This document shows positions 8,917-33,537 of a stretch of DNA of 54,258 bases, piece after piece; the first letter of the stretch is position 1; each line of letters opens with the position of its first letter. This DNA is from Bacteroidota bacterium (lineage in GTDB: Bacteria; Bacteroidota; Rhodothermia; Rhodothermales; Rubricoccaceae), in NCBI GenBank assembly GCA_039178415.1, contig JBCDFF010000001.1, forward strand, positions 1 to 54,258. The letters are read 5' to 3'. The notes below the pieces were generated by a model. The model had not been told where the DNA came from. It was given only the letters and a program-made list of their open reading frames with translations, and searched no databases. Made by a program: the position numbers and the translations under genes.

Positions 8917-9783
8917 TTAGACGTCGAAGCCCCAGCGCTCGACGGGGAAGCCGAAGGTCTCCTTGAAGCGCTGCATGTCGGAGGCCAGCCAGGCGCGTAG
9001 CTGGCCGACCTCGGCTTCGGTGAGGTCGCGCTTGGCCGGGGTGCCGCGTGCACGGAGCGCAGCCTTGATGTGGGCGCGCAGGCTCTCCGGGAGGAGGTGC
9101 CTGAACCGGTGAAGCCCGGACCGCGTCAGCCGAAGCTCGGCCTCGGACCGGGCCGGCGTGGCGTTCCGTGGCCCAGCGTCGTCGAACCTCGCCGCCGGCA
9201 GGCCGAGCCAGTCCGTGACCGACCGGCAGAGCGCCTCGGGGTCGGCTTTGAGGTCGTCGAAGTCCGCGACGAAGTACCGGTCCCGGTCGGGATAGACAGC
9301 CAGGAATTCGGACAGCTGCCGGTGGTACATCGACACCGAGGCGGCGAGCAGACCAAACAGGTTGGCGTCGCCCCACGCGTAGTTGTTGAGGTGCGCGTAG
9401 TTCAGTTGCGACGCAAACCGGTCGACGGGGTCGCGCACGATGTAGATGAAACGGGGCTCGACGCCGTACGCCTTCATCCGCTGCGGCACGCCGGCTTCTT
9501 CGGGAAACTTAGTGTAGCCGGTCGAGGCTTCGAGGCAGACTGTGTGGTGCGCCGGATCGAAGTCGAAGAGCGACTCGTAGCGCTCGGCCGCGACCCGGTG
9601 GGCCTGGTGGGCCGAGAAGAACTCAGGCTCTTTGGCGCGCGCTGCGCACAGCGCCGGGTGCTGCGCCAGCAGGTCGAAGAGCGACGAGGTCCCGGCTTTC
9701 ATCGCGCCGATGATCATCACGTAGGCATCGGCCGGGATAGAAGACGCGTTTTGCATAAGACCGTACGCAGCATACGATGGCAT
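8917..9783 (-). CDS. Sulfotransferase (PAPS-dependent, Sulfotransfer_1/3-like)
   Basis: 5'-PSB loop IIGAMKAGTSSL and 3'-PB motif IYIVRDPVDRFAS. The ATG at 9781-9783 overlaps the stop of the upstream GT (ATGA). An alternative ATG lies at 9756. Confidence 0.8.
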   Translation of the reverse strand: MPSYAAYGLMQNASSIPADAYVMIIGAMKAGTSSLFDLLAQHPALCAARAKEPEFFSAHQAHRVAAERYESLFDFDPAHHTVCLEASTGYTKFPEEAGVPQRMKAYGVEPRFIYIVRDPVDRFASQLNYAHLNNYAWGDANLFGLLAASVSMYHRQLSEFLAVYPDRDRYFVADFDDLKADPEALCRSVTDWLGLPAARFDDAGPRNATPARSEAELRLTRSGLHRFRHLLPESLRAHIKAALRARGTPAKRDLTEAEVGQLRAWLASDMQRFKETFGFPVERWGFDV

Positions 9784-11021
9784 CAAGTGGGTCGGACGAC
9801 GCAGGCGGGCCGGGAGCCGAGACCGAGCAGCCAGGCGTAGACCGCTGTCATCTCCTCGGCGACGTGCGTCCAGGAGTAGTCTCGTTCGACGAGTGCGCGT
9901 CCCCGCTGCCCCATCGCTGCGCGCTCGTCGTCCGAGCATGCCACCGCCTCGCGGAGCCCGGCGGCCACGCCGTCGGGTCCAATGTCGACCCACCAGCCGC
10001 AGGCGTGGGTTTCCAGGTCTTGCCACGGTGCCCCTCTCGTTGTGAGGACGGGAACGGCGCTGGCGAGGGCCTCGGCCACGACCGTCCCGAAGTTCTCGCT
10101 GTGAGTCGGGAGCACAAAGAAGTCGGCGCTTCGATAGACCGCCCATTTGGCCTCGTCTTCCACCGGACCGAGGAACTGCACGTCGTCCTCCAGGCCAAGC
10201 GAGGGGATCAGGCGTTCGAGTTCGGCGCGGTGGCCTTCGGCGTCGGGGCCGGCGACGACGAGCTCCCAGCCAGCAGGCTGGACCTCGGCCCAGGCCCGGA
10301 AGAGGTCCGGCAGGCCCTTGCCGGAGTGGAGGCGCGAGAGGAACAGCGCCCGGCGCTTCGCCCCGTTTGGCTGGTGCGCCGCGCCTCTCGCCTCAGCAGG
10401 TACGTCCACACCGTTGGGCACCACCGCGATAGGCTGGCGAAAGCCGAGGTTGCGTATGCCTTCCGCTTCGGCCTCCGAGGTGGCGTGAAACAGCGTCACA
10501 GCCTCGAGGTCGCGGTGCTGGTAGAGCGCCCAGGCGACCTTCTTCTTCCCCTGCTTGTGCTGCAGCGCCCACGGCGTGAGCATGCCCCGCGTGCTGAGGA
10601 CGCGCGGAGTGGCTGTTCGCTGCGCGAGCCTGGAGACGAGGTGGTTCGTCGGGAGCCAGATGCCGTGGTCGTGCAGCACGGCGGGTGCGCGCTCCAGTAG
10701 CGCTTCGGTGACCTCGGCAAAAGCAGAGCCGCCCCAGAAGGCCGCCGCCGCGGAGGGCCGCTCGGCGAAGTGGACCGGCACGAGGTCCGGGGGAGGAAGA
10801 ACGGCAGGCCCTTCGTCGGGGCGCAGGCGGGAGGTGACGATCTGCACGTCGGTGCCGCACCGCGCCAGCGCCGCGCACAGCAGCGAGACGCTCCGGCTCG
10901 GCCCGCCCTGGTCGGCCGAGAGGCTGTCCAGGGTGTGAACCGTGTGGCTTGCCACTTCTGCGGCACCACTCCGCCTCGCCGTGCGTATATCTCGATGCTT
11001 CGAACCCTGTGGGTGCATCAT
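9783..11021 (-). CDS. Glycosyltransferase family 4
   Basis: Starts MMHPQGSK, with the ATG overlapping the stop of the Wzy-like gene. GT-B features: HTLDSLSADQGGPSRSV near the N-terminus and FFVLPTHSENFGTVVAEALASAVPVLTT (E-x7-E region). Confidence 0.85.
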   Translation of the reverse strand: MMHPQGSKHRDIRTARRSGAAEVASHTVHTLDSLSADQGGPSRSVSLLCAALARCGTDVQIVTSRLRPDEGPAVLPPPDLVPVHFAERPSAAAAFWGGSAFAEVTEALLERAPAVLHDHGIWLPTNHLVSRLAQRTATPRVLSTRGMLTPWALQHKQGKKKVAWALYQHRDLEAVTLFHATSEAEAEGIRNLGFRQPIAVVPNGVDVPAEARGAAHQPNGAKRRALFLSRLHSGKGLPDLFRAWAEVQPAGWELVVAGPDAEGHRAELERLIPSLGLEDDVQFLGPVEDEAKWAVYRSADFFVLPTHSENFGTVVAEALASAVPVLTTRGAPWQDLETHACGWWVDIGPDGVAAGLREAVACSDDERAAMGQRGRALVERDYSWTHVAEEMTAVYAWLLGLGSRPACVVRPT

Positions 11022-12505
11022 CAGACGCTTACAGGACTCTGCGAGGACTGTACACGCTTGGCATCCCGAAGCCACGAGGTGATGAACGATTCTCCGAAGC
11101 TGAGTAGTAGCGACAACACGAGCAAGTTCATCACCATGAGACCGAACAACTTGACGGTCGCAATCTCCAGTGTGTGAGCGTTGATGAGAACGGCTGTGGC
11201 GAAGGCGTACCCGATGAGTCGATTCCGAGCCCTCGCAAGGAAGAAATAATAGATCAACCCCCACACGAGACCGAGTAGGAAGATGGCACCATACATGAAT
11301 ATGGGGCCGAAATCGATATAGCTCTCCCCCATGTACCCAATGCTGAACGATGTGCCCTCACCGCCGCTGGCAAGCACGAGTCCCGTGTAGGCCATTGTCA
11401 ATTCCGAGTCCGAGGGAAGCACCGGTTTGTTCGGAAAAAGCAAGCGCGGTTGCAAGAAATGCATTATGGAAGATCCCCATAATCGACCCCCTTCATGCTC
11501 TCGCACAGCAGGGACAAAGTCCAGCGTGTGAGCAAAGAAGTCAATGTATGCCAAGCGCTCAAACATAGGAAACATAGCCTCCTCTATATCTTCCAACTTT
11601 AGCTCTGAGACCAGTTGAGCGATCTTGATAAGCGATTCTGATCGAGACACGACGGTCACTTGCCGAGTTTCGTCACCTCCGCTGGCGTATACACGATAAT
11701 CGGCCTTGATGCTTGTCCACACGGCACCGATCAGTCCAAGCGATAGGACCAAGACAATTCCGAGAAGAATGGTTCTGGGCTTAAGTCGGATGTGAACAGT
11801 AAACACTACAATTAAAGCAAAGAAAAAAACATCTTTGAACTCTGCAAAATATCCGAGGCCTGTGACAAATTCCACTCCTATTGCAAGAGCGAAAAGTGTA
11901 TAACGCCTCTTCTGGCTGAGTACGAGGTAGCCCAAAATAAAGAAGAATACCCATTTGATTGCCATTGCGGCAAATAGGGCTTGCGTCAGCCCCGCCAGAC
12001 CCCAAGCGAACGCCCCCAGCATAACCGAGATGCCCGCACCGAACAGGTAGAGCAGAAAGGCCCGTTCCACGGAGAAGGAGGCCGACACCTCAGCCAAATC
12101 AGGGCGCTCGAGTCTGTTGAGCTTCTGGAGTCCTGCTCTCATCCCGAAGGCGAGAACAACGAGACCCACTAGAGTGAGCCAAGCAGCCTTCTCAATGGAG
12201 GCCATAGGAACTAGCTCTTCGAGAGAGACGCCCACAAAGTTGGCCTGGAACGTCCTCGACGTCGCTTGCACCCACTGGAACCCGATCACGAGAAGCAGTA
12301 CGGGCGTCTCACCCGGCCGCCAGAGCAACTTGAAGAATAGCGGCAGAACCAAAATGCTCGCTGCTGTAAGGAGCGGGTTGGGTGCCAGGAGGCCAAGCAC
12401 ACCGGCTACCAAGAAGACAGCCACCAGTGCGGGCGGCAGGTTGGACTCTCGAGACGGTTCAGCCGCCGCGCGCGCCCGCTGGATTCTGGCGCTAGACACT
12501 CGCAT
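11021..12505 (-). CDS. Polytopic membrane protein, O-antigen/EPS polymerase-like (Wzy/O-antigen-ligase-like)
   Basis: More than 10 hydrophobic segments by eye, about 494 aa, with lower GC than its neighbours. Its position inside a glycan locus fits. The start is taken at MRVSSARIQ (ATG 12503-12505). The family call is by topology and context only. Confidence 0.6.
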   Translation of the reverse strand: MRVSSARIQRARAAAEPSRESNLPPALVAVFLVAGVLGLLAPNPLLTAASILVLPLFFKLLWRPGETPVLLLVIGFQWVQATSRTFQANFVGVSLEELVPMASIEKAAWLTLVGLVVLAFGMRAGLQKLNRLERPDLAEVSASFSVERAFLLYLFGAGISVMLGAFAWGLAGLTQALFAAMAIKWVFFFILGYLVLSQKRRYTLFALAIGVEFVTGLGYFAEFKDVFFFALIVVFTVHIRLKPRTILLGIVLVLSLGLIGAVWTSIKADYRVYASGGDETRQVTVVSRSESLIKIAQLVSELKLEDIEEAMFPMFERLAYIDFFAHTLDFVPAVREHEGGRLWGSSIMHFLQPRLLFPNKPVLPSDSELTMAYTGLVLASGGEGTSFSIGYMGESYIDFGPIFMYGAIFLLGLVWGLIYYFFLARARNRLIGYAFATAVLINAHTLEIATVKLFGLMVMNLLVLSLLLSFGESFITSWLRDAKRVQSSQSPVSV

Positions 12506-13682
12506 ACGTCTCCTCCCATGCTCTCGTGAAGGCCTCTGGAGTGATCCCAAGCCTCTCAAGCGAGGCCTCGGCGGCCTTCTTCATACCATCCAGTGAAGTC
12601 TCATCCAAATCCAAGAGACCTTCGATTCCCTCAGCCAGCGAGGCTGCAGTCTTCGCACGACAGATCCACCCGTCTCTTCGGTGAGAAAGCAACTCAGGCA
12701 TCCCACCGGAGGGAAAAACCACAGATGGCACACCCGCCTGTTTCGCTTCCAGTATAACATTGCCCAAAGGCTCTTCGAAGACTGAAGGGGCCACATGAAT
12801 GTCAGAAACTGAAAACAGGTCTTGTACCTCCTCGACGAAGCCAAGGAATTGAATGCGGTCGGACAGGCCAGCCTCTTCCACTCTGCGCATGAGGTCCTCG
12901 GCAAAAGAGTTTTTCCAAGCGTAGTCACCGGCAATGATGAACCGCACATCTTCACGAGTGGAGCACAGACCGAGCGCTGCTTCCACGAGTACGTCCAGTC
13001 CCTTCAGCTTCGACAGCTGCCCCACGTAGAAGACGGTACGGCCCTTGAAGGGCGCGACGGTTGGAAGCACGCTCGGAGATGAGACATGCTGAGGAGGGTA
13101 GCTGTATATGACTTGCAAACTATCCTCGGGTACCCCTACGGCGCAGAGACGCTCGCGGATGTATTTGGAAATAGGCACGAATCGGCTCACACTCGGCACG
13201 ATGAGATAGCGCCAGACGAACCGGAAGAGTGGGCGGTGCTGCCTGGGAGCATCGCCCACGCGGAAAACGATTGGAATACGAAGCGCCCATAGAACAGGAA
13301 GAAGGTTTAGCAAATACCCTTCATTGCCTACATGGATGTGTGTAGGCTGGAACTCCCGTGCAACGCGGAGAAAGTCTTTGCTGCCTCTCATCGCTTGGCG
13401 GAGTCTTCCTCTCCACTGCTTCAGTGTCATCCCTCGGGCGAAGCGCTTGGGATACCTGCCTGTGGTCCATGCCAGGCCTAGTTCGTCCAAGGCTGGTTGG
13501 ATGCTCTCATGACCGTAGCGACGGTGTGTAACGAAGAGTACGCTATGCCCGGCTTCCTTCAGAGCGTAGAGCGCCTGAATGTTGCCTCGCTCCTGACCCC
13601 ACAGCGGAATGTTGCCAAAGATCACCAAAATCCGAAACGGACCTGCGCGCTTTTGTGAGGGAGCTGCGACGTCTGTCTGCAT
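12492..13682 (-). CDS. Glycosyltransferase family 4
   Basis: RILVIFGNIPLWGQERGN at the N-terminus. The C-terminal HVAPSVFEEPLGNVILEAKQAGVPSVVF is a GT1/GT4 E-x7-E region. Confidence 0.85.
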   Translation of the reverse strand: MQTDVAAPSQKRAGPFRILVIFGNIPLWGQERGNIQALYALKEAGHSVLFVTHRRYGHESIQPALDELGLAWTTGRYPKRFARGMTLKQWRGRLRQAMRGSKDFLRVAREFQPTHIHVGNEGYLLNLLPVLWALRIPIVFRVGDAPRQHRPLFRFVWRYLIVPSVSRFVPISKYIRERLCAVGVPEDSLQVIYSYPPQHVSSPSVLPTVAPFKGRTVFYVGQLSKLKGLDVLVEAALGLCSTREDVRFIIAGDYAWKNSFAEDLMRRVEEAGLSDRIQFLGFVEEVQDLFSVSDIHVAPSVFEEPLGNVILEAKQAGVPSVVFPSGGMPELLSHRRDGWICRAKTAASLAEGIEGLLDLDETSLDGMKKAAEASLERLGITPEAFTRAWEETYASV

Positions 13683-13697
13683 CAGGTCGACGGGGCT

Positions 13698-14873
13698 TTA
13701 CGGCTGTTGAGTTGCTGCCATACAGTGAACAGCTTCAAGAGCGCCTTCAGCAGCAGTCCGCAAGGAGTATATCCGCATCTTGCCTGCGACGGCCTCATGT
13801 ACCGCAGCCGTACCATAGCCTGTCAAAGTTCGTTCCAGCATAGTAGCGAGCGCGGCCACGTCTCCCACAGGGAAAGAATAGCCGGTGAGACCGGGCTCAA
13901 TCAGATCGGGCGCACACCCGACAGCGTCAGAGACGACGGCGGACAGGCCGCACGCCATCGCCTCGTTGACGACCAGCCCCCACGTCTCAGTTTCCGAGGG
14001 TAATACCAGGGCGTCGGCCAGCGCGTAGGCTTCAGGCATCTCCGATTGATTAAAGAACCCAAGAAGACTGATGGGTGCGCCAGCGCGCTCGCACGCGGCC
14101 TCGATCTCCGGCCGCATGGGGCCTTCTCCGACCATCACGCCCTGAACTCCAGGCATACGGTGGGACAGACGAGCGAGTGCCTCGACGAAGTCCAGGGGAC
14201 GCTTGACGGGAATGAACTTTCCAACGAACAGAGCGATAGGTCTCTCAGGGTGTAGCGCGTAGCGTTCTCGGAGAGCCGCTCGGTTCCTCCGGGCCTGCTC
14301 AGCCCGTGCAGCGAAGAAGTCATTGTCGACGAAGTGTGGTACAAAGAACATCCGCTCCGGTCGTGCCCCGTAGTGCAGGTAGTACTCTCTTGCCCGCGTC
14401 CCCACAGTCAGATACGCGTCGAACCGCGGGATAAACGCTCGATAGACTACCTCCTTGGCCGCCCGGAGCCACCAGCGGCGCGGAGTATTGAGTTGCGAGT
14501 CGCCCCGGACTATCAGCGGCGTGCCGGTGCGCCAACAGGCGCGCATGGCCTGCCAGAAGCTCCGCGTGTTCCAGCCGTTGACGAGGAAGGCGTCAAAGCG
14601 CTCGTACTCAATGATGCCCGCGATCTCAGGGGTGTCGCATCCTCGAAAGGACTCTGTGCCAGGAGCCTTGGCCACATTGTCGAGGAAGCGGTGCTGGTAG
14701 CCGTCGAGGAGCGGGACATCCCAATCGAACGCGACGCCGAAGCCAGCGTCTGCCTGCCCCTGCGCCGTCTGCTGGTGCGCGAAGTAGACTTGCAGATCTA
14801 GGTGCTCAGCCAGGGCTCGGTAGAGCGGCGCGTGGTACTGAATCGGGTGTGTAGCGAGAATGCCCAAGCGCAT
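13698..14873 (-). CDS. Glycosyltransferase family 4
   Basis: MRLGILATHPIQYHAPLY start (alternative start at 14903). LVLPSETETWGLVVNEAMACGLSAVVSD is an E-x7-E region. Confidence 0.85.
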   Translation of the reverse strand: MRLGILATHPIQYHAPLYRALAEHLDLQVYFAHQQTAQGQADAGFGVAFDWDVPLLDGYQHRFLDNVAKAPGTESFRGCDTPEIAGIIEYERFDAFLVNGWNTRSFWQAMRACWRTGTPLIVRGDSQLNTPRRWWLRAAKEVVYRAFIPRFDAYLTVGTRAREYYLHYGARPERMFFVPHFVDNDFFAARAEQARRNRAALRERYALHPERPIALFVGKFIPVKRPLDFVEALARLSHRMPGVQGVMVGEGPMRPEIEAACERAGAPISLLGFFNQSEMPEAYALADALVLPSETETWGLVVNEAMACGLSAVVSDAVGCAPDLIEPGLTGYSFPVGDVAALATMLERTLTGYGTAAVHEAVAGKMRIYSLRTAAEGALEAVHCMAATQQP

Positions 14874-14912
14874 GGCATGCCGGGTTAACTTGAGGCGCCC
14901 CACAAGTGAGGG

Positions 14913-16202
14913 CTAAGAGGTCCGGCTCCGCTCGAGCGCTTCATCCAGCGCCTCGGCCAGAATCTGCGTCACACTCCGCGCTGAGTAGGTCTCGAACTGA
15001 GCCTGGTCTACATGCCCCGGGTCGAAGCCCTCAGCGAAGTGCTGGAACTCCGTGAAGGTGGGGACGAACGCGTGCCCGATCTTGCCGAGTTCGGCTTCGC
15101 CGTCGAAGCTGATGACCTTGCCCGCTCCAGTTGAGCGGAGGACGGCGCACGCGGTGCTCGCCTCGTGGAGGATGGCGAAGATGGGCTTCTCGGAGAGCAC
15201 GCCCTGGTAGACCTTCGAGGGCGTGTAGTGCGGTTCGGTGCTGCCGAGGATGAACACGGCGTCGGCGGCGTCGAGGTGGGTGAGCACGTCGAGGTAGGGA
15301 ATGCGTGCCGGGTGCTCGGTGACAACGCTGCCCCACAGCCCATACTGCTCGGCCACCGGACGCACCTTGTAGCCCTTCGGGTCGTTCGGCGAGGTGCCGG
15401 TGCCGACGAAGTGGAACCGGACGCTTTCGAAGAGCGACAGGTTCTCTGAGATAGCCTGGAAGACGCGGTGGAGCGGCTCGAACGCGAGCGGGAGCAAGGC
15501 CCCGGCGTAGAGAAACTGGAAGGTGCCCGGTTCCTTGTCGAAGACGTAGAGCGGGGCGTCCAGGTCGTGGGCGCGGCGGTGGTCCTCGGCCTCGCCGCCG
15601 TAGGGCATCGAGGCGGTCACGGCCGTGTGCTGGAGGTGCGGGTTTCGCTCGAGGACGTCCTCGTAGTAGCCTCGCGCGACGCCCGTGATCAGCGACGCAT
15701 GCCTGACGGCCAGCGGTTCGAGCGCGTCGGCGAGGTGACTGCTGAGCCAGTGGCGCGAGAAGAGTTGGTCGGCACCAGGCCACTCGTGGACCCACGGGTC
15801 GATGTAGTCGATCCCGTACGGCGTCCCCCGAAGTTTGTAGACGATCGGTCCGAGCATCGCCGCGTAGAACGAGGGGATCGGGATGTACAGGAAGTCGATC
15901 TGTTCTTCGTCGATGAGTTGAAGCGCGCGCCGGAGCATCTGCCGGAAGCCCCGTATCCCGATGTCGCCGACGACGCGGACCGGAGGCACCGGCATCGCTT
16001 TCACCTGCTCGACCCGCAGACCCTCCGGGACGAGCTTGGCGAGGTTCCAGTCGAGCCTCTCCTCGTAGTAGTCGTGGTGGACCGTCAGCACGACGGGCTC
16101 CCAGCCGAACGCCGGCAGGTGCTGCGAGAAGAGACGCGTCCGGTGCACCGCCGCGAGGTTCGAGGGCGGGAAGTGAGGGGCTACGATGAGGACGCGTTTC
16201 AC
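14913..16202 (-). CDS. GT-B fold glycosyltransferase (group-1-like)
   Basis: GTG start. (M)KRVLIVAPHFPPSNLAAVHRTRLF is a typical GT-B N-terminal beta-alpha unit. The C-terminal half is less canonical. Confidence 0.65.
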   Translation of the reverse strand: MKRVLIVAPHFPPSNLAAVHRTRLFSQHLPAFGWEPVVLTVHHDYYEERLDWNLAKLVPEGLRVEQVKAMPVPPVRVVGDIGIRGFRQMLRRALQLIDEEQIDFLYIPIPSFYAAMLGPIVYKLRGTPYGIDYIDPWVHEWPGADQLFSRHWLSSHLADALEPLAVRHASLITGVARGYYEDVLERNPHLQHTAVTASMPYGGEAEDHRRAHDLDAPLYVFDKEPGTFQFLYAGALLPLAFEPLHRVFQAISENLSLFESVRFHFVGTGTSPNDPKGYKVRPVAEQYGLWGSVVTEHPARIPYLDVLTHLDAADAVFILGSTEPHYTPSKVYQGVLSEKPIFAILHEASTACAVLRSTGAGKVISFDGEAELGKIGHAFVPTFTEFQHFAEGFDPGHVDQAQFETYSARSVTQILAEALDEALERSRTS

Positions 16203-18593: not shown

Positions 18594-18596
18594 CGG

Positions 18597-19661: not shown

Positions 19662-19676
19662 GGCATGCGTCTCGGA

Positions 19677-20621: not shown

Positions 20622-20629
20622 CGGAGGCG

Positions 20630-26159: not shown

Positions 26160-27242
26160 TTAGGCTCTGGCTACTTTGCGCTTTAGCCGTGCTCCTACTT
26201 CTCGCAGGACAGACCGGGGTTCCACGCGCCACAGCATGTTCATGATCGCGAGGTAGCTCGCGGCCGACGCCGGGCGCGCCCGCTCGGCGAGCTGAAGCAG
26301 CTTGCCCGCCGCGTCTCGGCGGACGAGCGGTGCCGAGGCTGCGTCGAGGGCGAAGCGCCGGGTGTACGCATCGTACAGGTCCCGGACGAGTCGGGCAGCG
26401 GCTTCGAGGTGCGCCGGCGACGTGTCGGGGGGCTCGATGCCGGGAACGCTCCCGCGCTGCACGAGCTGCCGCACGAGGGCGACCTCGTTGAGGGGCACCT
26501 TGCGTTCCAGCAGGCGCTCGTGGGCCTGCTGCATCGTCTCGATGACGGTGCGCTCCTGCCGCTCGGCGTGCTGCGCGCCGATCGTGCCGTCGTGCTTGCG
26601 GCGCGTCAGGAGGGCATCGGGCAGATTGGCAATCCGGGTGACGAAGCGCGCGCGCGTCCACAGCTCGTAGTCCTCGGCGTGGAGCGCCTCTTTCCGGTAG
26701 AGGCCCTGCCCGTCGTCGAGCGCGTCCAGCACCTCGCGCCGCATGAGGACCGTCGGGTGGCAGATGTTCGTCTTGAAGAGCAGGTTCCAGCCGTTCATGC
26801 CCGGCGGTGCCCAGCGTGGCCACGCGCCGCCGGTTAGCTCTCCGTCCGCGTCGCTGTAGGCCGCCACGGTGCCGAGGATGCCGACCTCGGGGTGCGCCTT
26901 CAGAAAGGCCACCTGCTGATCGAAGCGCTCGGGGTGGCTGACGTCGTCGTCGTCCATGCGCGCAATCAGCCCGCCCCGCGCCTCGGACACCCCCCGGTTC
27001 AGCGACGCGATCAGCCCCCGGTTCGCCTGCGAGAGCACCCGCACCCGCGCGTCGCGGGCGGCGTAGGCGGCGAGGATCTCCGGCGTGGCGTCGGTCGAGC
27101 CGTCGTCGATGCAGAGGAGTTCGAAGTCGGTGAAGGTCTGGTCGAGGATGCTGTCGACGGCTTGGCGGAGGTAGCGCTCGCCGTTGTAGACCGCCATCAC
27201 CACGCTGATGGTTGGGTCTTCGATGGGTGGGGGTTCGGGCAT
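26160..27242 (-). CDS. Glycosyltransferase family 2 (paralog 1 of pair)
   Basis: MPEPPPIEDPTISVVMAVYNGERYLRQAVDSILDQTFTDFELLCIDDGSTDAT...ARMDDDDVSHPERF. Confidence 0.85.
   Translation of the reverse strand: MPEPPPIEDPTISVVMAVYNGERYLRQAVDSILDQTFTDFELLCIDDGSTDATPEILAAYAARDARVRVLSQANRGLIASLNRGVSEARGGLIARMDDDDVSHPERFDQQVAFLKAHPEVGILGTVAAYSDADGELTGGAWPRWAPPGMNGWNLLFKTNICHPTVLMRREVLDALDDGQGLYRKEALHAEDYELWTRARFVTRIANLPDALLTRRKHDGTIGAQHAERQERTVIETMQQAHERLLERKVPLNEVALVRQLVQRGSVPGIEPPDTSPAHLEAAARLVRDLYDAYTRRFALDAASAPLVRRDAAGKLLQLAERARPASAASYLAIMNMLWRVEPRSVLREVGARLKRKVARA
26921..27208. repeat. Near-identical ~288-bp segment shared with 27994-28281 (offset 1073 nt)
   Basis: Direct comparison: more than 100 nt are perfectly identical from 26921, then only scattered mismatches plus one diverged patch of about 35 nt. 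Covers the GT-A nucleotide-binding N-terminal domain of both GT2 paralogs. Confidence 0.85.
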
Positions 27243-27247: not shown

Positions 27248-28315
27248 CTAGCGCTTGAGCGCGCGCCGGGTGAGCTTCTTGAGGAGAGTCGGGGTGCGCC
27301 CGGGGTCCCAGCGCAGGGCGCGCGCTGAGACCGCGAGGGCAGCCGGCGAGCGCGGCGGGAGCTTGAGGGCCCACTTGGTGTAGCGGTCAGCGATGCGCTG
27401 CTTTAAGCGGTGCTCCATCGCAGGCGTGAGGGCCCGGCCGTCCTGGATGCTCCGGTAGGCGTCCACCATCGACCGCAGGTTTGCGTCGACCGTGCCGAGG
27501 TCGCTGGCCTCGGGAAAGCGGTAGCCCTGCGCCGCGTAGGCCAGCCAGAAGCGCTGCAGCATCTTCACCTCGTCCAGCGTTGGGGTTGCGCCGAGCGTTC
27601 GCTCCATGTGGTGCCGCGCCACGACGGCTGTGTAGTGCATTTGCTCGCCCCGGTGCTGCCGCGAAACGCTCCCAGCGTGGTAGCGGTAGCGCTGCAGCGC
27701 CTCGGGAAGAAGCCGTACGGCCCCGCGCTGCGTGAGGCGGCACCAGAGGCCATAGTCCTCGGCGTGCCGGTCATCGGCGGCATAAGCCCCCGCGTCGAGG
27801 GCGGCTGCGCGGCGGTACATCACCTGGCTGTGGCCTCCCACGTAGTTGTAGAAGAGGAGAAACCAGCCTGCGAGATCAGCGTCCCGCGCCGAGTCATAGA
27901 CCGAGCCGGACTGTCCCTCGGTGTCCATGATCTGAAGGTTGCAGGAGACGAGCACGGTCTCCGGCTCCCGCTCGAAGACGGCCACCATGCGCTCGAAGCG
28001 CTCGGGGTGGCTGACGTCGTCGTCGTCCATGCGCGCAATCAGCCCGCCCCGCGCCTCGGACACCCCCCGGTTCAGCGACGCGATCAGCCCCCGGTTCTCT
28101 TGCGAGAGCACCCGCACCCGCGCGTCGCGGGCGGCGTAGGCGGCGAGGATCTCCGGCGTGGCGTCGGCCGAGCCGTCGTCGATGCAGAGCAACTCAAAGT
28201 CTCGGAAGCTCTGGGCGAGGATGCTGTCGACGGCTTGGCGGAGGTAGCGCTCGCCGTTGTAGACCGACATCACCACGCTGACGCGTGGCGCGGCGGATTC
28301 GGGGTGAGAGTTCAT
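27248..28315 (-). CDS. Glycosyltransferase family 2 (paralog 2 of pair)
   Basis: MNSHPESAAPRVSVVMSVYNGERYLRQAVDSILAQSFRDFELLCIDDGSADAT...ARMDDDDVSHPERF. The C-terminal half is diverged from paralog 1. Confidence 0.85.
   Translation of the reverse strand: MNSHPESAAPRVSVVMSVYNGERYLRQAVDSILAQSFRDFELLCIDDGSADATPEILAAYAARDARVRVLSQENRGLIASLNRGVSEARGGLIARMDDDDVSHPERFERMVAVFEREPETVLVSCNLQIMDTEGQSGSVYDSARDADLAGWFLLFYNYVGGHSQVMYRRAAALDAGAYAADDRHAEDYGLWCRLTQRGAVRLLPEALQRYRYHAGSVSRQHRGEQMHYTAVVARHHMERTLGATPTLDEVKMLQRFWLAYAAQGYRFPEASDLGTVDANLRSMVDAYRSIQDGRALTPAMEHRLKQRIADRYTKWALKLPPRSPAALAVSARALRWDPGRTPTLLKKLTRRALKR
27994..28281. repeat. Partner of repeat 26921-27208
   Basis: Same comparison. Confidence 0.85.
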
Positions 28316-28365: not shown

Positions 28366-29157
28366 TTAGCTCAGAGGCGCTTGCTGAGTGGGACCCTCCG
28401 GCGAAGAGGGTGCGGAGACGGGAGTGTAGCGCGGAAGGTGATCGTGCCGGTCGGCGAGCTCGTCCAGGAAGACGTAGTCTTCCGCGTACCAGGCCGCGAG
28501 GTTGGCTCTCGCCTCGTCGCTCAGCGTGACGTCTAGATGCTCGGGACGGCGGTGAGCCTCTTTGGGGCTGCTCGGTAACTGGAGGTCTTCGGGCAATCCC
28601 AGGACAGCCTTGAGCCGCTGGAAGTCCTCGCGCAGATGTTCCTGGGAGCCGACAAACAGCAGGTCGTCTGCCCGCGAGCGGAAGGCCGCGTCGTCGCCGA
28701 ACCACAGGCGGTAGGGATCGCGGACATGCTGGATGCTGCGCATAGCGTGCTCAGCCTCGGCCCGGCGCGCTGCGTCCGGGTCGCTAAGGGCGCGGGCGAG
28801 TTCGTCGGGCGTCTGGAAGCGCTCGAAGGCGGTCGCCTCGTTCCGGGTCCAGCGGTAGAAGTAGCGGGGCTGCCCTTGGCGCTGTCGGCTGTAGAAGCCG
28901 CTGGCGAACCGGCTGACCGGGTCGCGGACGAAGAAGAAGAAGCCGTCGCCCTCGGGAATATCGCCGAGCGTGACGCGATGGCCGTGCAGGAAGAGCCGGC
29001 AGTTGTCGCCGCGCGCGTTCTCCAGGGTCGCCTTTAGGGCCGTGCCTCCGGTCTTACCTACATGCAAGAGGTGCGCGTGCTGCACGCCGCGCCACCTATC
29101 CCAATGGAGAGTCAGACGTTCGAGGTGGGAACGTTCAAGAGGCATGGAGAACAGCAT
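28366..29157 (-). CDS. Sulfotransferase-like protein (Sulfotransfer_2-like)
   Basis: LLHVGKTGGTALKATL P-loop-like PAPS motif and FFFFVRDPVSRFASGFY. Start at MLFSMPLER (29157) or MPLER (29145). Confidence 0.65.
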   Translation of the reverse strand: MLFSMPLERSHLERLTLHWDRWRGVQHAHLLHVGKTGGTALKATLENARGDNCRLFLHGHRVTLGDIPEGDGFFFFVRDPVSRFASGFYSRQRQGQPRYFYRWTRNEATAFERFQTPDELARALSDPDAARRAEAEHAMRSIQHVRDPYRLWFGDDAAFRSRADDLLFVGSQEHLREDFQRLKAVLGLPEDLQLPSSPKEAHRRPEHLDVTLSDEARANLAAWYAEDYVFLDELADRHDHLPRYTPVSAPSSPEGPTQQAPLS

Positions 29158-29297: not shown

Positions 29298-30290
29298 TCA
29301 GGCGAGTTCGAAGTCGAGATCAAACGGCAGTTCGAAAGGCCGGGCGAAGCGGAGTACCTGCTCGGCCTGGTCCTCGGTGAGTTCGTCGCGCCACTTGCCG
29401 GGTTCCTGCTCCGACACGCGCTTCAGCGCGTACGGCCTGTCGCTGGCCACCGTCGTGTCACCCGCGAGTTGTTGCCGTATCGCCTGGGTCCACCGCAGGT
29501 CGAGGTCCTCGAACAGAGTACGGTATGCCTGCTCCGGCTCAACGCAGAGCGTCTCGTGCTGGACGACGATCCAGTCCGGATGGCGCTCGTGCTGCTGAAG
29601 CATGACGTAGTTCGAGGCTCCCCAGAACGCGCCTAGCTTCTCGAAGTAGGTCTTCGCTGAGTTCATCACGTCCCGGTACGAGGCGAGGTGGTCGTCCATC
29701 AGCGCCGGCTGGGCGAGGAGCACCTGAAGGTGCGCGTCGGAGCCCTGCCAGTGCCAGTCGTCCGGGAAGCGCCCGCGCAGCCGGGCCCACGACGAGGCCA
29801 TGGCGCACGGATGCCGCAGTGCGATCACAATGCGGGGCCGAAGGTGGTGGCTGATCCAGTCGAGCGCGAGGCACGCGTGGACGTCTTTGACGAGGTGCCG
29901 GGAGGGCCACCAGAGGTTCTGCTGCAGGGCGTGCGCGTCGCGAGGTGCCGCGTGCCCGTTGTAGACTCCTCGGCCGGCAAAGGCCGCGCGGGCGTGCTGC
30001 TCAAATGCCGGGTCGCGGTCCGCGGCCCGGACGTACCGCATGTGGAAGGCTCGCACCTCCGGGCCGAGGGTGACGTTGAACGGCTCGTGGAAGTAGCGTA
30101 CGCCGTCGGCCTTCGCGAGCGTCGAGGCGAGCCAGGTGGTGCCGGAGCGCGGCAGCCCGACGACCAAGATGGGGACCTGCTTCGCGGCGCGGAGGTCGCC
30201 CGGCAGCGCGCGGACGCTCTGGGCGATGGGAACGAAGCGCTTGAGGAGGCGAGAGTCGGTCATGGGACAAAGGAGTCGCAGCGGGCTCAC
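29298..30290 (-). CDS. Sulfotransferase (P-loop PRSGTTW type)
   Basis: ILVVGLPRSGTTWLASTL and IVIALRHPCAMASSW. A GTG at 30288-30290 gives a GTGA overlap with the upstream stop. An alternative ATG start lies at 30263 (MTDSRLL). Confidence 0.75.
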   Translation of the reverse strand: MSPLRLLCPMTDSRLLKRFVPIAQSVRALPGDLRAAKQVPILVVGLPRSGTTWLASTLAKADGVRYFHEPFNVTLGPEVRAFHMRYVRAADRDPAFEQHARAAFAGRGVYNGHAAPRDAHALQQNLWWPSRHLVKDVHACLALDWISHHLRPRIVIALRHPCAMASSWARLRGRFPDDWHWQGSDAHLQVLLAQPALMDDHLASYRDVMNSAKTYFEKLGAFWGASNYVMLQQHERHPDWIVVQHETLCVEPEQAYRTLFEDLDLRWTQAIRQQLAGDTTVASDRPYALKRVSEQEPGKWRDELTEDQAEQVLRFARPFELPFDLDFELA

Positions 30291-31237
30291 ACCCAGTCCG
30301 TGAGCTTCCAGGCATACCCGAACGTCTTCATCGTGGGGTACACCTCGTCCCGAATCCGCTTCTTGTCACCCAGAGACAGCTCCTTGCGCCCGGTGCCGGG
30401 CTTGGCCTTGCGTACGAATCCTTCAGGCTCAACGGCGGTGTCGCCTTGCACGCGCTGGTAATGGCCGAAGATCGGAATCGGGGTGCCGCCGCCGCCTTTC
30501 AGCGCCCCCACGCGGTTCGCTTCTACGGCATGGCTGACCTGGTCAGCACTCCAGGCTAACCCCATGAAATCCGTAAGCGACCGGAGCGTGCCTTCGGGAT
30601 CGGCGCTGAGGTCTTCGTAGCGGACTTGGACGAACGTGCCGGCAGGCATCTGCCCCGACGCCTCGCGGACAGCCTCGACGTGCTTGACCCAGATGCCAGC
30701 AGCCTTGCCGGTGTCGCTCGGTGCCCACGCTTTTCCCCAGCCCTGCGAGGCGGCCACGAGCGACGCCACAACGTCGCGCGGGTCCCGGACCAGGTGGATG
30801 AACTTGCTCCGCGGCAGGAGCGTCCTGATTTCCGGAATCACGAGGGCGTGCGACGGGCTCTTCTCCAGAAACCGGTCTCCTTGCCGCATCCCGGCTGCCC
30901 GCATCATCATCACGACGTAGAGACGGAGCAGGTTCAGGAACTCGGCCTCCTCCAGGTAGCCGGCCAAGCCGAGGCCGCTCCGGCCCTCAAAGGCGGGGTC
31001 AGAGGTTCGGTCGATCGCACGCTGCCACGTCCGAAGCTGGGGCGCGAGGTAGTGGCTGAAGAGATGCGACTCCTGCCCCGTCCTGACCTGGGGGTGGCTG
31101 GCAAGCAGACGCTGGAGCCACGTCGTCCCGCTCCGCGGGCTCCCGACGATGAAGACGACCTCCTCGCCGGCACAGGATGACGCCTCCTCCCACAAATCGG
31201 GCGGGGCCTCGTGAGGAACGAGAGACTCTGCGGACAT
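30287..31237 (-). CDS. Sulfotransferase (P-loop PRSGTTW type)
   Basis: VVFIVGSPRSGTTWLQRLLASHP and FIHLVRDPRDVVASL. Confidence 0.8.
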   Translation of the reverse strand: MSAESLVPHEAPPDLWEEASSCAGEEVVFIVGSPRSGTTWLQRLLASHPQVRTGQESHLFSHYLAPQLRTWQRAIDRTSDPAFEGRSGLGLAGYLEEAEFLNLLRLYVVMMMRAAGMRQGDRFLEKSPSHALVIPEIRTLLPRSKFIHLVRDPRDVVASLVAASQGWGKAWAPSDTGKAAGIWVKHVEAVREASGQMPAGTFVQVRYEDLSADPEGTLRSLTDFMGLAWSADQVSHAVEANRVGALKGGGGTPIPIFGHYQRVQGDTAVEPEGFVRKAKPGTGRKELSLGDKKRIRDEVYPTMKTFGYAWKLTDWV

Positions 31238-31249: not shown

Positions 31250-32572
31250 CTAAGGCTGTTGGATCAGCGGAGCGCCGGCATCGGCCTCGTGGGTCCACGC
31301 GTGCTCCAGGAGGACCGTCGAGTGCTTTGCGTCAGGCGTGAAGCCTGAACGGTAGAACGTGCTCATGCCGACTTCGAAGTCAAGCGCCGGCTTCAGAGCG
31401 TCGAGCATGCGTTTCTGGACGTAGTCCTTGGCGTTGATCTTGATCTGGTAGGCTCCGTTGGGAAGAGGGAGGTTGGGGAGGCGGCACCGAACACGTCCGG
31501 TTCCTTTCTTGATCTCGTAGTATGTGTCGTGCGAGCGCGTGTGCATGACCGATACTGGGACCTTCAGGTGGTTGTGAATCTGCACCCAGAACATGACGCC
31601 CGGCAGGTCTTCCTCTGCCTCGTACTCCAGCACGATATCGACGGGCTCGCCTGCTGTCGGGGCATGGGTCCGCCGGCCGCGCTGGTCCACGAGATAGGCC
31701 GACGTGAAGCGAAGGCGACCGTCGCCGCCGCGTTCGTCGTCGTCTATCTCGTCGAGACGGAGGTTGTCCCGGTCAGTGACTTCCATGTCGTCGAGGTACC
31801 ACTCCACGGCCTCTTGCACTGGCCCTTGATGGACGAGGCGGCCCCCGTCGAGCACGTAGGCCCGCTGACACAGGTTGGTGACGGTGCTCATCTCGTGGCT
31901 CACGTAGAGCACGGTCCGGCCGGACTTAGAGACCTCGTCCATTTTGCCGAGGCACTTCTTCTTGAACGCGATGTCGCCCACGGCCAGCACCTCGTCGACG
32001 ACGAGGATGTCCGGTTCGAGGTGGGCCGCCACGGCGAACCCGAGGCGGACCTTCATGCCCGAGGAGTAGCGCTTGACCGGCGTGTCGATGAACTTGCCGA
32101 CGCCGGAGAACTCCACGATCTCGTCGAACTTGCGGCCCACCTCTGCCTTCGTCATGCCGAGGATGGTGCCGTTGAGAAAGACGTTCTCGCGGCCTGTCAA
32201 CTCCTGGTGGAACCCGGTGCCGACTTCGAGCAGGGCCGAGACGCGCCCGATAAGTTCGATGCTGCCCGTCGTGGGATAGGTGATGCGCGAGAGGAGCTTG
32301 AGCAGCGTGGACTTCCCGGCCCCATTGCGGCCGATGAACCCGACGACCTCGCCGGGGTGGATCTCGAACGAGACGTCGCGCAGTGCCCAGAGCACGTCGT
32401 CGCGGTCCTCGTCGTCATCGAAGTGGCTGAGGTCGCGGAGCCGGCGGTAGTTGGAGACCGGGGCCGTGAACCATGAGCCGATCGAGCCGAGGAGGGTTTC
32501 GTGCTTCTCTTCCTCCACGCCGATTCGGTAGCGCTTGCCGAGGTTCTCTACACGTATCGCAGGGCGGGACAT
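31250..32572 (-). CDS. wzt: Polysaccharide ABC exporter ATP-binding protein with C-terminal extension (Wzt/TagH type)
   Basis: Walker A GRNGAGKST, signature YSSGMKVRL, Walker B ILVVDEVLAVGD. The LEVGTGFHQELTGRENV motif is typical of Wzt/TagH. About 190 aa follow the NBD, where Wzt carbohydrate-binding domains sit. Confidence 0.9.
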   Translation of the reverse strand: MSRPAIRVENLGKRYRIGVEEEKHETLLGSIGSWFTAPVSNYRRLRDLSHFDDDEDRDDVLWALRDVSFEIHPGEVVGFIGRNGAGKSTLLKLLSRITYPTTGSIELIGRVSALLEVGTGFHQELTGRENVFLNGTILGMTKAEVGRKFDEIVEFSGVGKFIDTPVKRYSSGMKVRLGFAVAAHLEPDILVVDEVLAVGDIAFKKKCLGKMDEVSKSGRTVLYVSHEMSTVTNLCQRAYVLDGGRLVHQGPVQEAVEWYLDDMEVTDRDNLRLDEIDDDERGGDGRLRFTSAYLVDQRGRRTHAPTAGEPVDIVLEYEAEEDLPGVMFWVQIHNHLKVPVSVMHTRSHDTYYEIKKGTGRVRCRLPNLPLPNGAYQIKINAKDYVQKRMLDALKPALDFEVGMSTFYRSGFTPDAKHSTVLLEHAWTHEADAGAPLIQQP

Positions 32573-32622
32573 AGGCGTGAGGATGATGCGAAGTTTTCAG
32601 GTGCAGCGGGTGCGCGGCGCTC

Positions 32623-33537
32623 CTACCAGAGCACCCCAGACGACCGCGGGTCGAAGTCTTGGTAGAAGGGAAGCCCGAAGGGTTCTGCGAAGCGGCGGCA
32701 GGTCTCCATGTCTTCGTCCGACACCTCGGCGCGCCACTTGTCGATCTGCGCTGCCGACTTCCGGGTAAGTGAGTAGGGACGGTCCGAGTGCTCGTCTGTG
32801 TTCTCGTCGAGAAAGTCCTCGGCCTCCTGGGTCCAGTGAAGGTCGAGGCGGTCGAAGAGAGTACGAAAGCGGGCGACAGGGTCTTGGCAGAGCCACTCGA
32901 ACGGCACAAGAGCGCGGTCTGCTCCCCGCTTGTGCTGGTGGTAGACTACGTAGTTAACCGCTCCCCACTGGGCGCCGGCTCGCTCCCAGAAGGTTTCGGC
33001 GGAGAGGAGAAGCTCCTCAAATGGGTGCAAGTAGTCCGCCAGGAGCGTGTCGCTCCAAGTCAGCCGGTGAGGCCTCGGCTCCCACCCGAGCCGCCGGACG
33101 CTCGCGAACTGTCCGCACGGATGACGCAGGAGGTAGACCATGCTAGCGCTAGGGTATTGGGCTTGGAGCCAGTTGAGGGCAAGGCTCGAATTGACGAGCT
33201 TGACGATCGTGTTCGGCTTGCGGCGGTAGAGCGCGGGAAGGTGTTTCCCCAGCTTGTGCCACCGCTGAGGCAGGTGGTCCATGACCGGCCCGGCATCGTC
33301 GCGCATGGTGAACGGGGTGGCGACCTTGCCGCGAAGAGCCCGGTCCATGTGACGGCGATACTGCTCGTCGTCCCCCGCGCTCGCGAGGTAGAGGTAGGGG
33401 AAGTAGCGCTCCGCCCCATCGACGAGGACGAAGTTGTCGGGCTCACGGTAGTACGTGTAGCCGGGCGCGAGTCCGAGCACGCGGCCGGCCCAGCTCGTGC
33501 CGGTCCGCGGCATGCCTGCTACGATGGCCTGTTTCAT
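32623..33537 (-). CDS. Sulfotransferase-like protein located between wzm and wzt
   Basis: MKQAIVAGMPRTGTSWAGRVL P-loop and MVYLLRHPCGQFASV, colinear with 29298-30290 (e.g. WTQ..R..L and the RPY(S/A)L(T/K)R tail). Start taken at ATG 33535-33537. Confidence 0.7.
   Translation of the reverse strand: MKQAIVAGMPRTGTSWAGRVLGLAPGYTYYREPDNFVLVDGAERYFPYLYLASAGDDEQYRRHMDRALRGKVATPFTMRDDAGPVMDHLPQRWHKLGKHLPALYRRKPNTIVKLVNSSLALNWLQAQYPSASMVYLLRHPCGQFASVRRLGWEPRPHRLTWSDTLLADYLHPFEELLLSAETFWERAGAQWGAVNYVVYHQHKRGADRALVPFEWLCQDPVARFRTLFDRLDLHWTQEAEDFLDENTDEHSDRPYSLTRKSAAQIDKWRAEVSDEDMETCRRFAEPFGLPFYQDFDPRSSGVLW

Follow-up and report, generated by a model that had tools for sequence, protein, structure and literature searches.

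A gene cluster with eight sulfotransferases of four sequence types and an ABC exporter in an uncultured marine Rhodothermales bacterium

Introduction

Polysaccharides carrying sulfate are a typical product of animals and algae. To our knowledge, bacterial ones have been reported from only a handful of genera, and the bacterial loci that we found described in the literature carry two to three sulfotransferases (STs) each.

The plasmid-borne synechan (xss) cluster of Synechocystis sp. PCC 6803 combines two STs of distinct subfamilies, interleaved with about eight glycosyltransferases, with Wzx/Wzy/PCP/OPX export and the XssQRS regulators; in this system, ST number tracks sulfate stoichiometry (PMC8205485). 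The ABC-linked capsule locus of the marine Gram-negative Vibrio sp. KMM 8419, whose sulfated polysaccharide has been structurally proven, has three STs over about 80 genes, together with sugar-nucleotide genes and extra cysNDC copies, and the co-location of PAPS genes with the locus was treated as a hallmark (PMC11641403). In E. coli O8/O9a and Klebsiella O3/O4/O5/O7/O12, wzm/wzt with a Wzt carbohydrate-binding module is accompanied by WecA-type priming (PMC11231755). In such polymerase-terminator O-polysaccharide systems the whole chain is made in the cytoplasm, modifying enzymes are encoded beside wzt, a few multi-module glycosyltransferases assemble repeats of one to four sugars, and a coiled-coil terminator adds methyl, methyl-phosphate or Kdo (PMC11231755). 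ABC-dependent O-polysaccharides usually have repeats of one to three sugars (PMC4483657). Finally, the EPS of Rhodothermus marinus shows a sulfate-ester IR band (PMC9590192).

Here we analyze a sugar-polymer gene cluster of about 34 kb from an uncultured marine Rhodothermales bacterium.

Results

Gene content and packing of the locus

The window, that is, the whole stretch of DNA analyzed (54,258 nucleotides), contains the cluster described in Table 1. The closest MAG has a coral skeleton as its source, and the setting is marine and sulfate-rich. Verification of the ORFs by third-position GC frame analysis and start-codon mapping reproduced all eight ST genes listed in the original prediction, each on the minus strand. 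Its count of 14 glycosyltransferases, interleaved on the same strand with a carbamoyltransferase and export genes, also agreed with the Pfam domains, which resolve into eight GT4-type and six GT2 enzymes, all single-module.

The packing is operon-like: 30 genes run in one direction, neighboring genes overlap at 11 of their 29 junctions, and gaps exceed 100 nt in just three places (140-175 nt). The occurrence of eight STs in 30 consecutive genes has a chance expectation of ~1e-6, even with 30 STs spread over 3000 genes; this clustering cannot be due to chance. Scans for sigma-70 promoters and terminators returned nothing exceeding background.

The AsnB-like protein may catalyze uronamide or amide formation. 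The PRTase+HAD-like protein has the PRPP-loop motif VLVLDDSIWSGSS and a DMDGVL motif, and the locus perhaps encodes a PRPP-dependent ribofuranosyltransferase, as in Klebsiella O4 and O7 (PMC11231755). Two terminal proteins, one with six hydrophobic segments, are unassigned; PHROGs and permissive Pfam scans of the unassigned proteins gave no matches. As originally noted, the ORFs tiling the window encode no PAPS-synthesis domain (cysDN or cysC); cysQ is absent from them as well.

Table 1. Features of the locus, in the order of the minus-strand block after the divergent genes.
Feature	Coordinates	Strand	Evidence and remarks
Divergent partners (Wzc-like, secreted protein, WecA-family)	39013-43679	+	Syntenic in relatives
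WecA-family polyprenyl-phosphate HexNAc-1-P transferase	42414-43679	+	PF00953 137 bits
Secreted protein, 192 aa	within 39013-43679	+	
Wzc-like PCP/tyrosine-kinase	39013-41397	+	PF02706, PF13807, PF13614
AsnB-like glutamine amidotransferase	35700-37499	-	First gene of block; PF00733 190 bits, PF13537 155 bits
GT4h, conserved exporter partner	34535-35731	-	PF00534 135 bits
Wzm, ABC-2 permease	33554-34507	-	PF01061 33.9 bits; several hydrophobic segments
ST8, between wzm and wzt	32623-33537	-	Sulfotransfer_3; PF13469 42.7 bits (cut-off 27)
Wzt, ABC ATPase with C-terminal carbohydrate-binding domain	31250-32572	-	PF00005 79 bits; PF14524 Wzt_C 55.9 bits (cut-off 30.4)
ST7	30287-31237	-	Sulfotransfer_3/1, TPST- and CurM-like; PF13469 144 bits
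ST6	29298-30290	-	Start 30290 (GTG) or 30263 (ATG); PF13469 43.7 bits
ST5	28366-29157	-	Sulfotransfer_2 type; PF03567 32.4 bits (cut-off 22)
GT2f	27248-28315	-	PF00535 (118 and 126 bits, GT2f and GT2e)
GT2e	26160-27242	-	
GT4g	25005-26105	-	PF13692 53 bits
Tandem HS2ST/HS6ST-like STs	22527-25005	-	Three genes
ST4	24142-25005	-	
ST3	23339-24142	-	
ST2	22527-23342	-	
GT2d, GT2c, GT2b, PRTase+HAD-like, GT2a, GT4f	16378-22542	-	Pfam GT2/GT4 matches
PRTase+HAD-like protein	18597-19661	-	
Distal sub-block after 175-nt gap (GT4e, GT4d, GT4c, Wzy/ligase-like, GT4b, ST1)	8917-16202	-	Pfam GT4 matches
Polytopic Wzy/ligase-like membrane protein	11021-12505	-	Low GC; at least 9 hydrophobic segments; sole match TIGR04370, E 0.0016
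ST1	8917-9783	-	HS 3-OST/NDST-like; PF13469 52 bits, PF00685 42 bits; PDB 3-OST-1 E 1.3e-8
Terminal sub-block after 173-nt gap (O-carbamoyltransferase, GT4a, two further proteins)	3971-8743	-	
NodU/CmcH-type O-carbamoyltransferase	6962-8743	-	PF16861 239 bits, PF02543 204 bits
GT4a	5646-6914	-	Terminal sub-block

Assignment of the sulfotransferases

The eight translations all contain a 5'-phosphosulfate-binding loop Lys/Arg and a 3'-phosphate-binding Arg...Ser, in the forms quoted originally: GAMKAGTSS / IVRDPVDRFAS in ST1, H(V/L)PKCGG(T/S/Q)S / LREPV(A/K)RW in ST2-4, HVGKTGGTA / FVRDPVSRFAS in ST5, and PR(S/T)GT(T/S)W with LRHPC or VRDPRD in ST6, ST7 and ST8. Whereas ST1 and ST5-ST8 score directly above the gathering cut-offs of PF13469 or PF03567 (Table 1), ST2, ST3 and ST4 as single sequences are 1-6 bits short (19.8, 21.2 and 16.2 bits against a cut-off of 22) and match through their family profile and fold. 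PF03567 is matched by 35 of 41 members of this tandem family, in which K33, H96, R118 and S126 are invariant, and in the PDB the family profile matches HS6ST (E 3e-11) and HS2ST (E 3.5e-6). The folds closest to the AlphaFold model of ST3 (pLDDT 94) are those of HS2ST and HS6ST. The ST8 model (pLDDT 92) gave 102 Foldseek matches at E<1e-3, and the 50 listed are all sulfotransferases, TPST1/2 being the best; both models have the sulfotransferase alpha/beta fold. In the ST8 family, R11, G13, S15, R138, H139, P140 and S146 are invariant, and ST8 and ST6 are paralogues (35% identical, BLASTP E 3e-49). Distant relatives were reached only through profile and fold searches; searches of PDB sequences with ST3 or ST5 alone and with the ST8 profile yielded nothing useful, and an NCBIfam search gave no informative family names. 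On sequence grounds, membership of the PAPS-dependent sulfotransferase superfamily (PF00685/PF03567/PF13469) is confirmed for all eight proteins, with the fold predicted by modeling for ST3 and ST8.

Among relatives of solved structure, animal HS2ST, HS6ST and 3-OST come closest to ST2-4 (2-O/6-O type) and ST1 (3-O/NDST type), with which they have in common the 5'-PSB Lys, the catalytic His and the 3'-PB Arg/Ser. Identity to the HS enzymes in structural alignments is 13-16%, and the likeness partly reflects a bias of PDB and Pfam seeds toward glycosaminoglycan (GAG) enzymes (PMC11625862), so that the closest solved structure does not define the acceptor. In addition, the animal enzymes are Golgi type-II membrane proteins, whereas the bacterial ones are soluble and cytoplasmic; in each of the eight STs the 19-residue hydropathy maximum is below 1.4.

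It should be noted that the tandem family is not "very rare", as 43 matches had suggested: an exhaustive search found 648 representatives at E<=1e-30, a number that rises to 4473 at E<=1e-10.

Export route and conservation in relatives

The original prediction missed the export route, a Wzm/Wzt ABC transporter whose Wzt carries a carbohydrate-binding domain. Export by this transporter would place sulfation in the cytoplasm. The cassette (AsnB)-GT4-Wzm-ST8-Wzt-ST7 is also present in five further genomes. In all six, ST8 is 16-50 nt from wzm and wzt, and ST7 follows 12 nt past wzt. The AsnB-like gene has the same position in three relatives (L008, L009 and L045), GT4h is 71-74% identical in relatives, and the divergent Wzc/secreted/WecA arrangement is the same in L007, L008 and L009 (74-88% identity). 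The downstream ST and glycosyltransferase content is variable, as in a serotype locus: ST5 is found in L007 and L009 and is absent from L008, ST6 is found in L008 and L048 and is absent from L007 and L009. Of the sets compared, that of the window is the most complete. Among 38 loci with ST8 homologues, the combination of multiple STs with Wzm/Wzt occurs only in this clade.

Regarding chain termination, Pfam detected no kinase, methyltransferase or Kdo-transferase domain in the locus, and a crude scan for a coiled-coil terminator found none: helix-prone stretches free of Pro and Gly did not exceed 54 residues in any of its proteins. A non-canonical terminator may nevertheless exist. It is conceivable, if rather improbable, that a sulfate ester added by the exporter-linked ST8 and/or ST7 is a non-reducing-end cap read by the Wzt binding domain, which would license export, and that the variable downstream STs then decorate the repeat units. 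If so, ABC-dependent glycan assembly would have a chemically new class of chain terminator, one that does not need the coiled-coil ruler protein of the known systems. A neighborhood search with Wzt_C homologues gave one match. A single cap conserved across the clade finds no support, since the Wzt binding domain (65-78% identical) is less conserved than the ATPase domain (89-95%).

Comparison with described systems

Like xss, the locus interleaves STs of distinct subfamilies with glycosyltransferases and has a PCP (the Wzc-like protein). Unlike xss, it is chromosomal and has eight STs of four types and Wzm/Wzt (Wzt_C). Pfam scans of all window ORFs found neither a Wzx/MOP flippase (Polysacc_synt/MOP) nor an OPX (Wza) domain, and no STAND or two-component regulators of the synechan type were detected in the locus. 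Family searches do not assign the Wzy-like protein as Wzy, WaaL or O-oligosaccharyltransferase. The locus resembles that of Vibrio sp. KMM 8419 in being ABC-linked, in coming from a marine Gram-negative and in having several STs in one large locus, but it packs eight into 25 kb, without PAPS or sugar-nucleotide genes. With the polymerase-terminator systems it shares wzm/wzt, the Wzt binding module and WecA-type priming, whereas its glycosyltransferases are single-module, STs flank wzt and the usual terminator proteins are lacking. Fourteen single-module glycosyltransferases are atypical for ABC-dependent O-polysaccharides. This runs against the reading proposed here, as do the missing coiled-coil terminator and the absence of PAPS genes from the window. 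Taken together, the block at 3971-37499 (-) and the divergent WecA/Wzc genes probably constitute a chromosomal surface-polysaccharide locus of the O-polysaccharide-like, ABC-transporter-dependent type.

Predicted product and alternative interpretations

The most likely product is a heavily sulfated surface polysaccharide. Since the ST identities hold and the STs sit in a packed glycan-assembly and export locus conserved in relatives, a complex glycan sulfated at several positions, as originally proposed, is the best reading and is supported by the HMM, profile and fold matches; the failure to match sulfotransferase HMMs, originally named as a refutation, did not occur. As ST2-4 are recent paralogues, eight genes need not equal eight sulfated positions, and, as discussed below, more than one product may be made. 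The accompanying description as glycosaminoglycan-, fucoidan- or carrageenan-like in charge stands as a charge analogy only. A GAG-like backbone was rejected: the glycosyltransferases are generic GT2/GT4 enzymes, and the window has no uronic-acid, heparosan/GAG synthase, Ugd (UDPG_MGDP_dh), C5-epimerase or N-deacetylase genes or domains.

In the pathway that we consider most likely, undecaprenyl phosphate would be primed by the WecA-type enzyme, and the single-module GT4/GT2 enzymes, perhaps with a PRPP-dependent ribofuranosyltransferase, would build a complex heteroglycan at the cytoplasmic face of the inner membrane. The eight soluble STs of four types would then place sulfate esters from PAPS at several distinct positions of the still-cytoplasmic lipid-linked glycan, and the carbamoyltransferase and amidotransferase would add further groups. 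The finished chain would leave via Wzm/Wzt, a terminal feature of the chain probably being checked by the C-terminal carbohydrate-binding domain of Wzt. What the analysis shows directly is the family membership, motifs and folds of the enzymes and the order and conservation of their genes; that the STs act on the glycan, that they do so in the cytoplasm, how many positions they sulfate and what finally anchors the chain (lipid A-core or another structure) are inferences.

One alternative, which we regard as possible though not favored, is that the cluster makes at least two separate glycans: a proximal one (37499-16378; Wzm/Wzt and ST2-ST8) exported by the ABC transporter and a distal one (16202-3971; five GT4s, the Wzy-like protein, ST1 and the carbamoyltransferase) that is Wzy/Wzc-type or ligase-dependent, with less sulfation per polymer than eight genes suggest. 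The three gaps of 140-175 nt, two of them at 16202|16378 and 8743|8917, a possible internal promoter (a Bacteroidota-type TAnnTTTG box at 8851-8858(-), inside the gap at 8743|8917, with the same motif directly upstream of both tRNA genes), the low-GC insert (54-56%) with the polytopic Wzy-like protein and the Wzc-like gene on the opposite strand together point to at least two transcription units and perhaps to two or more polymers. However, no flippase or OPX is detected in the window, the Wzy-like assignment has an E value of only 0.0016, the GT4f | GT4e junction is kept in the relative L002, and all genes are contiguous in the same direction.

It is unlikely, in our view, that only a few positions are sulfated, with ST2-4 and ST6/ST8 as redundant, alternatively expressed or partly inactive copies in a fast-evolving serotype locus that confers light sulfation. 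ST2-4 are a three-copy DNA repeat (59-71% pairwise protein identity) in which the 3' ends of ST3 and ST4 are 92% identical over 300 nt, indicating recent duplication or gene conversion, and two tandem copies suffice in relatives, which miss either ST5 or ST6. Nevertheless, the invariant Lys, His, Arg and Ser are retained in all three copies, their N-terminal halves have diverged, and the four ST types are too unlike for a common acceptor site. Moreover, in L008 the tandem copies alternate 1:1 with GT2 genes, suggesting that each copy pairs with a specific sugar addition.

Finally, the idea that some STs, especially ST7 and ST8, are mere neighbors of the glycan genes and act on protein tyrosines, lipids or a small molecule is very improbable: although their nearest structures are tyrosylprotein and CurM/olefin-synthase sulfotransferases rather than carbohydrate ones (for ST7, TPST2 at E 1.5e-13 and the CurM ST at 2e-11), and single ST8-family genes without Wzm/Wzt occur in many Gemmatimonadales genomes, the seed bias mentioned above applies, both genes keep their tight positions around wzt in six genomes, and ST8 homologues in Halochromatium and L047 also lie among GT2, Wzy_C, Wzx and AsnB genes.

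Discussion

As the locus of a heavily sulfated surface polysaccharide, the cluster would extend the sulfated-polysaccharide trait to Rhodothermales and would show dense, multi-type sulfation carried out wholly in the cytoplasm, before an ABC exporter. Its conserved Wzm-ST-Wzt-ST cassette provides a concrete handle on how modification is coupled to export. The eight small, soluble bacterial STs of carbohydrate type, 2-O/6-O- and 3-O-like ones among them, are candidates for the enzymatic sulfation of heparin-like or designer polysaccharides. In marine surroundings shared with coral, a polyanionic coat of this kind could influence how the bacterium binds cations, interacts with a host and withstands phages or grazers.

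Gene content and organization of the glycan locus

Because the window has a G+C content of ~67%, raw ORF lists were noisy; genes were called by a third-position GC frame plot combined with start-codon mapping. This analysis delineated 30 co-directional minus-strand genes, from 37499 down to 3971, and established as real coding frames the eight ORFs that the original prediction had proposed as sulfotransferase genes (ST1-ST8), all of whose translations contain the motifs it had quoted. Only ST6 has an ambiguous start (GTG at 30290 or ATG at 30263). The packing is operon-like, with 11 of the 29 junctions overlapping and just three gaps exceeding 100 nt (140 nt at 29157/29298, 175 nt at 16202/16378, and 173 nt at 8743/8917). 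Pfam analysis also bore out the earlier counts of 14 glycosyltransferases on the same strand as the sulfotransferases (eight GT4-type and six GT2), and of no PAPS-synthesis genes: domains of ATP sulfurylase, APS kinase, or PAP phosphatase are missing from every ORF tiling the 54-kb window. The genes for a Wzc-like co-polymerase/kinase and for an initiating transferase of the WecA family lie in divergent orientation to the block.

Features of the window and their coordinates (scores are Pfam bit scores, with cut-offs in brackets)
Feature	Coordinates	Strand	Remarks
ST1	8917-9783	-	PF13469, 52 (27)
ST2	22527-23342	-	19.8 (22)
ST3	23339-24142	-	21.2 (22)
ST4	24142-25005	-	16.2 (22)
ST5	28366-29157	-	PF03567, 32 (22)
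ST6	29298-30290	-	PF13469, 44 (27)
ST7	30287-31237	-	PF13469, 144 (27)
ST8	32623-33537	-	PF13469, 43 (27)
O-carbamoyltransferase		-	NodU/CmcH-type; glycan block
AsnB-like amidotransferase		-	glycan block
Wzm permease		-	glycan block
Wzt ATPase		-	C-terminal Wzt_C carbohydrate-binding domain; glycan block
Low-GC island	11021-13682	-	54-56% vs ~68% G+C
Wzy/ligase-like polytopic membrane protein		-	within low-GC island
PRTase+HAD-like protein	18597-19661	-	354 aa
T9SS-tail protein	37735-38532	-	small, secreted; sorting domain PF18962
Perfect 14-bp hairpin	37683-37715		after T9SS-tail protein gene
1098-aa protein	717-4013	+	lower-GC region (55-61%)
tRNA-Asn	125-200	-	
tRNA-Leu	411-495	+	
TAnnTTTG	243-250	-	directly upstream of tRNA-Asn
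TAnnTTTG	392-399	+	directly upstream of tRNA-Leu
TAnnTTTG	8851-8858	-	upstream of carbamoyltransferase gene
PqqD-like recognition protein	within ORF 43495-44127	+	
Transglutaminase-like protease	44111-44557	+	
Asn-synthase-like cyclase	44464-46677	+	
98-aa ORF	46684-46980	+	
HPr-kinase-like protein	47131-48045	+	weak, 22 bits
ABC exporter of RiPP-like cluster	48057-49991	+	
NTP_transf_5 nucleotidyltransferase	52862-53989		

TAnnTTTG, a -7 promoter motif of the Bacteroidota type, occurs only five times in the whole window, and its presence at both tRNA genes suggests that this type of promoter is in use in this organism. Since another copy sits in the 173-nt gap, the genes distal to it may form separate transcription units or be part of a second polymer. 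The low-GC island, which also holds a GT4 gene, looks horizontally acquired; TIGR04370 was the sole match of its membrane protein (E = 0.0016).

The PRTase+HAD-like protein, conserved in one related locus (L002), combines an N-terminal PRTase fold, including the PRPP-binding loop VLVLDDSIWSGSS, with a C-terminal HAD-like DMDGVL motif. Its matches were weak (Pfam, 19.5 bits; PDB, E = 0.005). Its similarity to the two-domain PRPP-dependent ribofuranosyltransferases of Klebsiella O4/O7 (PMC11231755) raises the possibility that ribofuranose is part of the glycan.

Identity of the sulfotransferases

Five of the eight proteins (ST1 and ST5-ST8) scored above the Pfam gathering cut-offs, and the three tandem copies ST2-ST4 fell below. 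In a 41-member alignment of the tandem family, residues H30, K33, G35, G36, H96, R118, P120, and S126 are invariant; PF03567 recognizes 35 of these proteins. Against PDB sequences, the family profile retrieved heparan-sulfate 6-O-sulfotransferase (E = 3.3e-11) and 2-O-sulfotransferase (HS2ST; E = 3.5e-6), with the conserved GH motif aligned to the HGH of HS2ST; likewise, the best folds for the AlphaFold model of ST3 (pLDDT 94.4) were HS2ST and HS6ST. ST8 has no sequence relative among PDB sequences. Its model (pLDDT 92.1) gave 102 structural matches at E < 1e-3, and all 50 listed are sulfotransferases, TPST1/2 on top. The closest solved relatives of ST1 are HS 3-O-sulfotransferases (E = 1.3e-8), and those of ST7 are TPST2 and CurM-type enzymes (E = 1.5e-13). 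Taken together, the Pfam, family-profile, and fold evidence makes all eight credible PAPS-type sulfotransferases.

The proteins fall into four sequence types: ST1 and ST7 (25% identical), ST2-ST4 (59-71%), ST5 alone, and ST6 and ST8 (35%). The tandem triplet is young, since ST3 and ST4 share a 300-nt segment that is 92% identical. A lone family member, 52% identical to ST3, lies at 10001-10852 of a 508 kb contig (L003; ERZ25070591 ctg148229). It is not part of a glycan locus; it is flanked by genes for an ABC ATPase and a MarC-family protein, with T9SS-tail proteins encoded nearby.

Conservation of the locus

The nearest relatives of ST8 are found in Rhodothermales MAGs, one of which (IP29b_bin.81) was obtained from Isopora palifera coral skeleton (PMC9868349). 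Synteny mapping revealed the conserved order WecA-192aa-Wzc // T9SS-tail protein-(AsnB)-GT4-Wzm-ST8-Wzt-ST7, with ST6 or ST5 variably present and the glycosyltransferase GT2f shared with a single relative (L007). The tandem family has three copies in the window vs. two in relatives, interleaved with GT2 genes in locus L008. The cassette is also present in two further assemblies (ST8 identity of 59% and 72%), and its genomic surroundings differ in one of these. Within Wzt, divergence is faster in the binding domain than in the ATPase domain.

Among 38 GTDB loci with ST8 homologues, only those of Rhodothermales combine many sulfotransferases with Wzm/Wzt; Gemmatimonadales and most others showed no sulfotransferase besides the homologue itself, and Nocardioides showed three. 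ST8-family genes also lie in other glycan contexts. A Logan contig (L047; SRR17689989) harbors a Wzx-type locus that packs into 10 kb four sulfotransferase genes along with a methyltransferase and GT2s, which shows that multi-sulfotransferase glycan loci also exist in other uncultured bacteria. In Halochromatium glycolicum (NRSJ01000068), an ST8-family gene adjoins genes for a Sulfotransfer_2 protein, an AsnB-like protein, a 932-aa GT2, and a Wzy_C protein. The ST8-AsnB association recurs across phyla.

Other genes in the window

All relatives conserve the T9SS-tail protein (57-69% identical), its gene being the first one upstream of the glycan block in the same orientation; the N-terminal domain of the protein matched no family. 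A connection between such T9SS cargo and an anionic glycan anchor (cf. A-LPS in Porphyromonas) is speculative. The region 43840-49991 (+), perhaps extending to 53989, resembles a lasso-peptide-type RiPP cluster, with genes running from the PqqD-like recognition protein to the ABC exporter. No precursor peptide was found. The 1098-aa protein has an N-terminal hydrophobic segment and matched nothing in Pfam or PHROGs.

Proposed route of sulfation

In ABC-transporter-dependent assembly, the entire chain is built on undecaprenyl phosphate, on the cytoplasmic side of the membrane, before it is exported. Since the eight enzymes are all soluble (hydropathy analysis detected no hydrophobic segment in any of them) and PAPS resides in the cytoplasm, the simplest reading is that a glycan acceptor would be sulfated in the cytoplasm ahead of export, which suits this type of pathway. 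That the sulfotransferases belong to four unrelated types speaks for several separate acceptor positions, and the 1:1 pairing of tandem-family and GT2 genes in L008 suggests sugar-specific sulfation. The analysis itself establishes the identity, order, and conservation of the genes; the acceptor, the timing of sulfation, and the number of positions modified are inferred.

In all characterised terminated O-polysaccharide systems, the C-terminal module of Wzt binds the non-reducing terminal cap, such that only finished chains leave (PMC11231755). A bolder, though improbable, possibility is that a sulfate ester serves as this export-licensing cap. The locus departs from classic polymerase-terminator systems in its 14 single-module glycosyltransferases and in having no coiled-coil terminator, none being found in a scan of the locus proteins.

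Comparison with known sulfated-glycan loci

Assignment as a GAG locus is not supported, because the window contains no backbone synthase, Ugd, epimerase, or deacetylase. Three putative GAG-type sulfotransferases have been described in Pontiella (PMC7356697). The synechan xss cluster contains two sulfotransferases and eight glycosyltransferases with Wzx/Wzy export, whereas the locus described here has eight and 14, respectively, with Wzm/Wzt; the synechan authors were unaware of another bacterial EPS cluster with two sulfotransferases, and mention cyanobacterial ABC-type clusters containing ST genes (PMC8205485). The capsule locus of Vibrio KMM 8419 has three sulfotransferases in ~80 genes, together with cysNDC (PMC11641403), compared with eight in 30 genes here. 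A 2024 review puts the number of bacterial genera with sulfated polysaccharides at six (PMC11625862), and our literature search found no paper treating Rhodothermales and sulfotransferases together. Within this known type of locus, the new element is the occurrence of eight sulfotransferases among 30 genes, together with a conserved Wzm-ST-Wzt-ST cassette.
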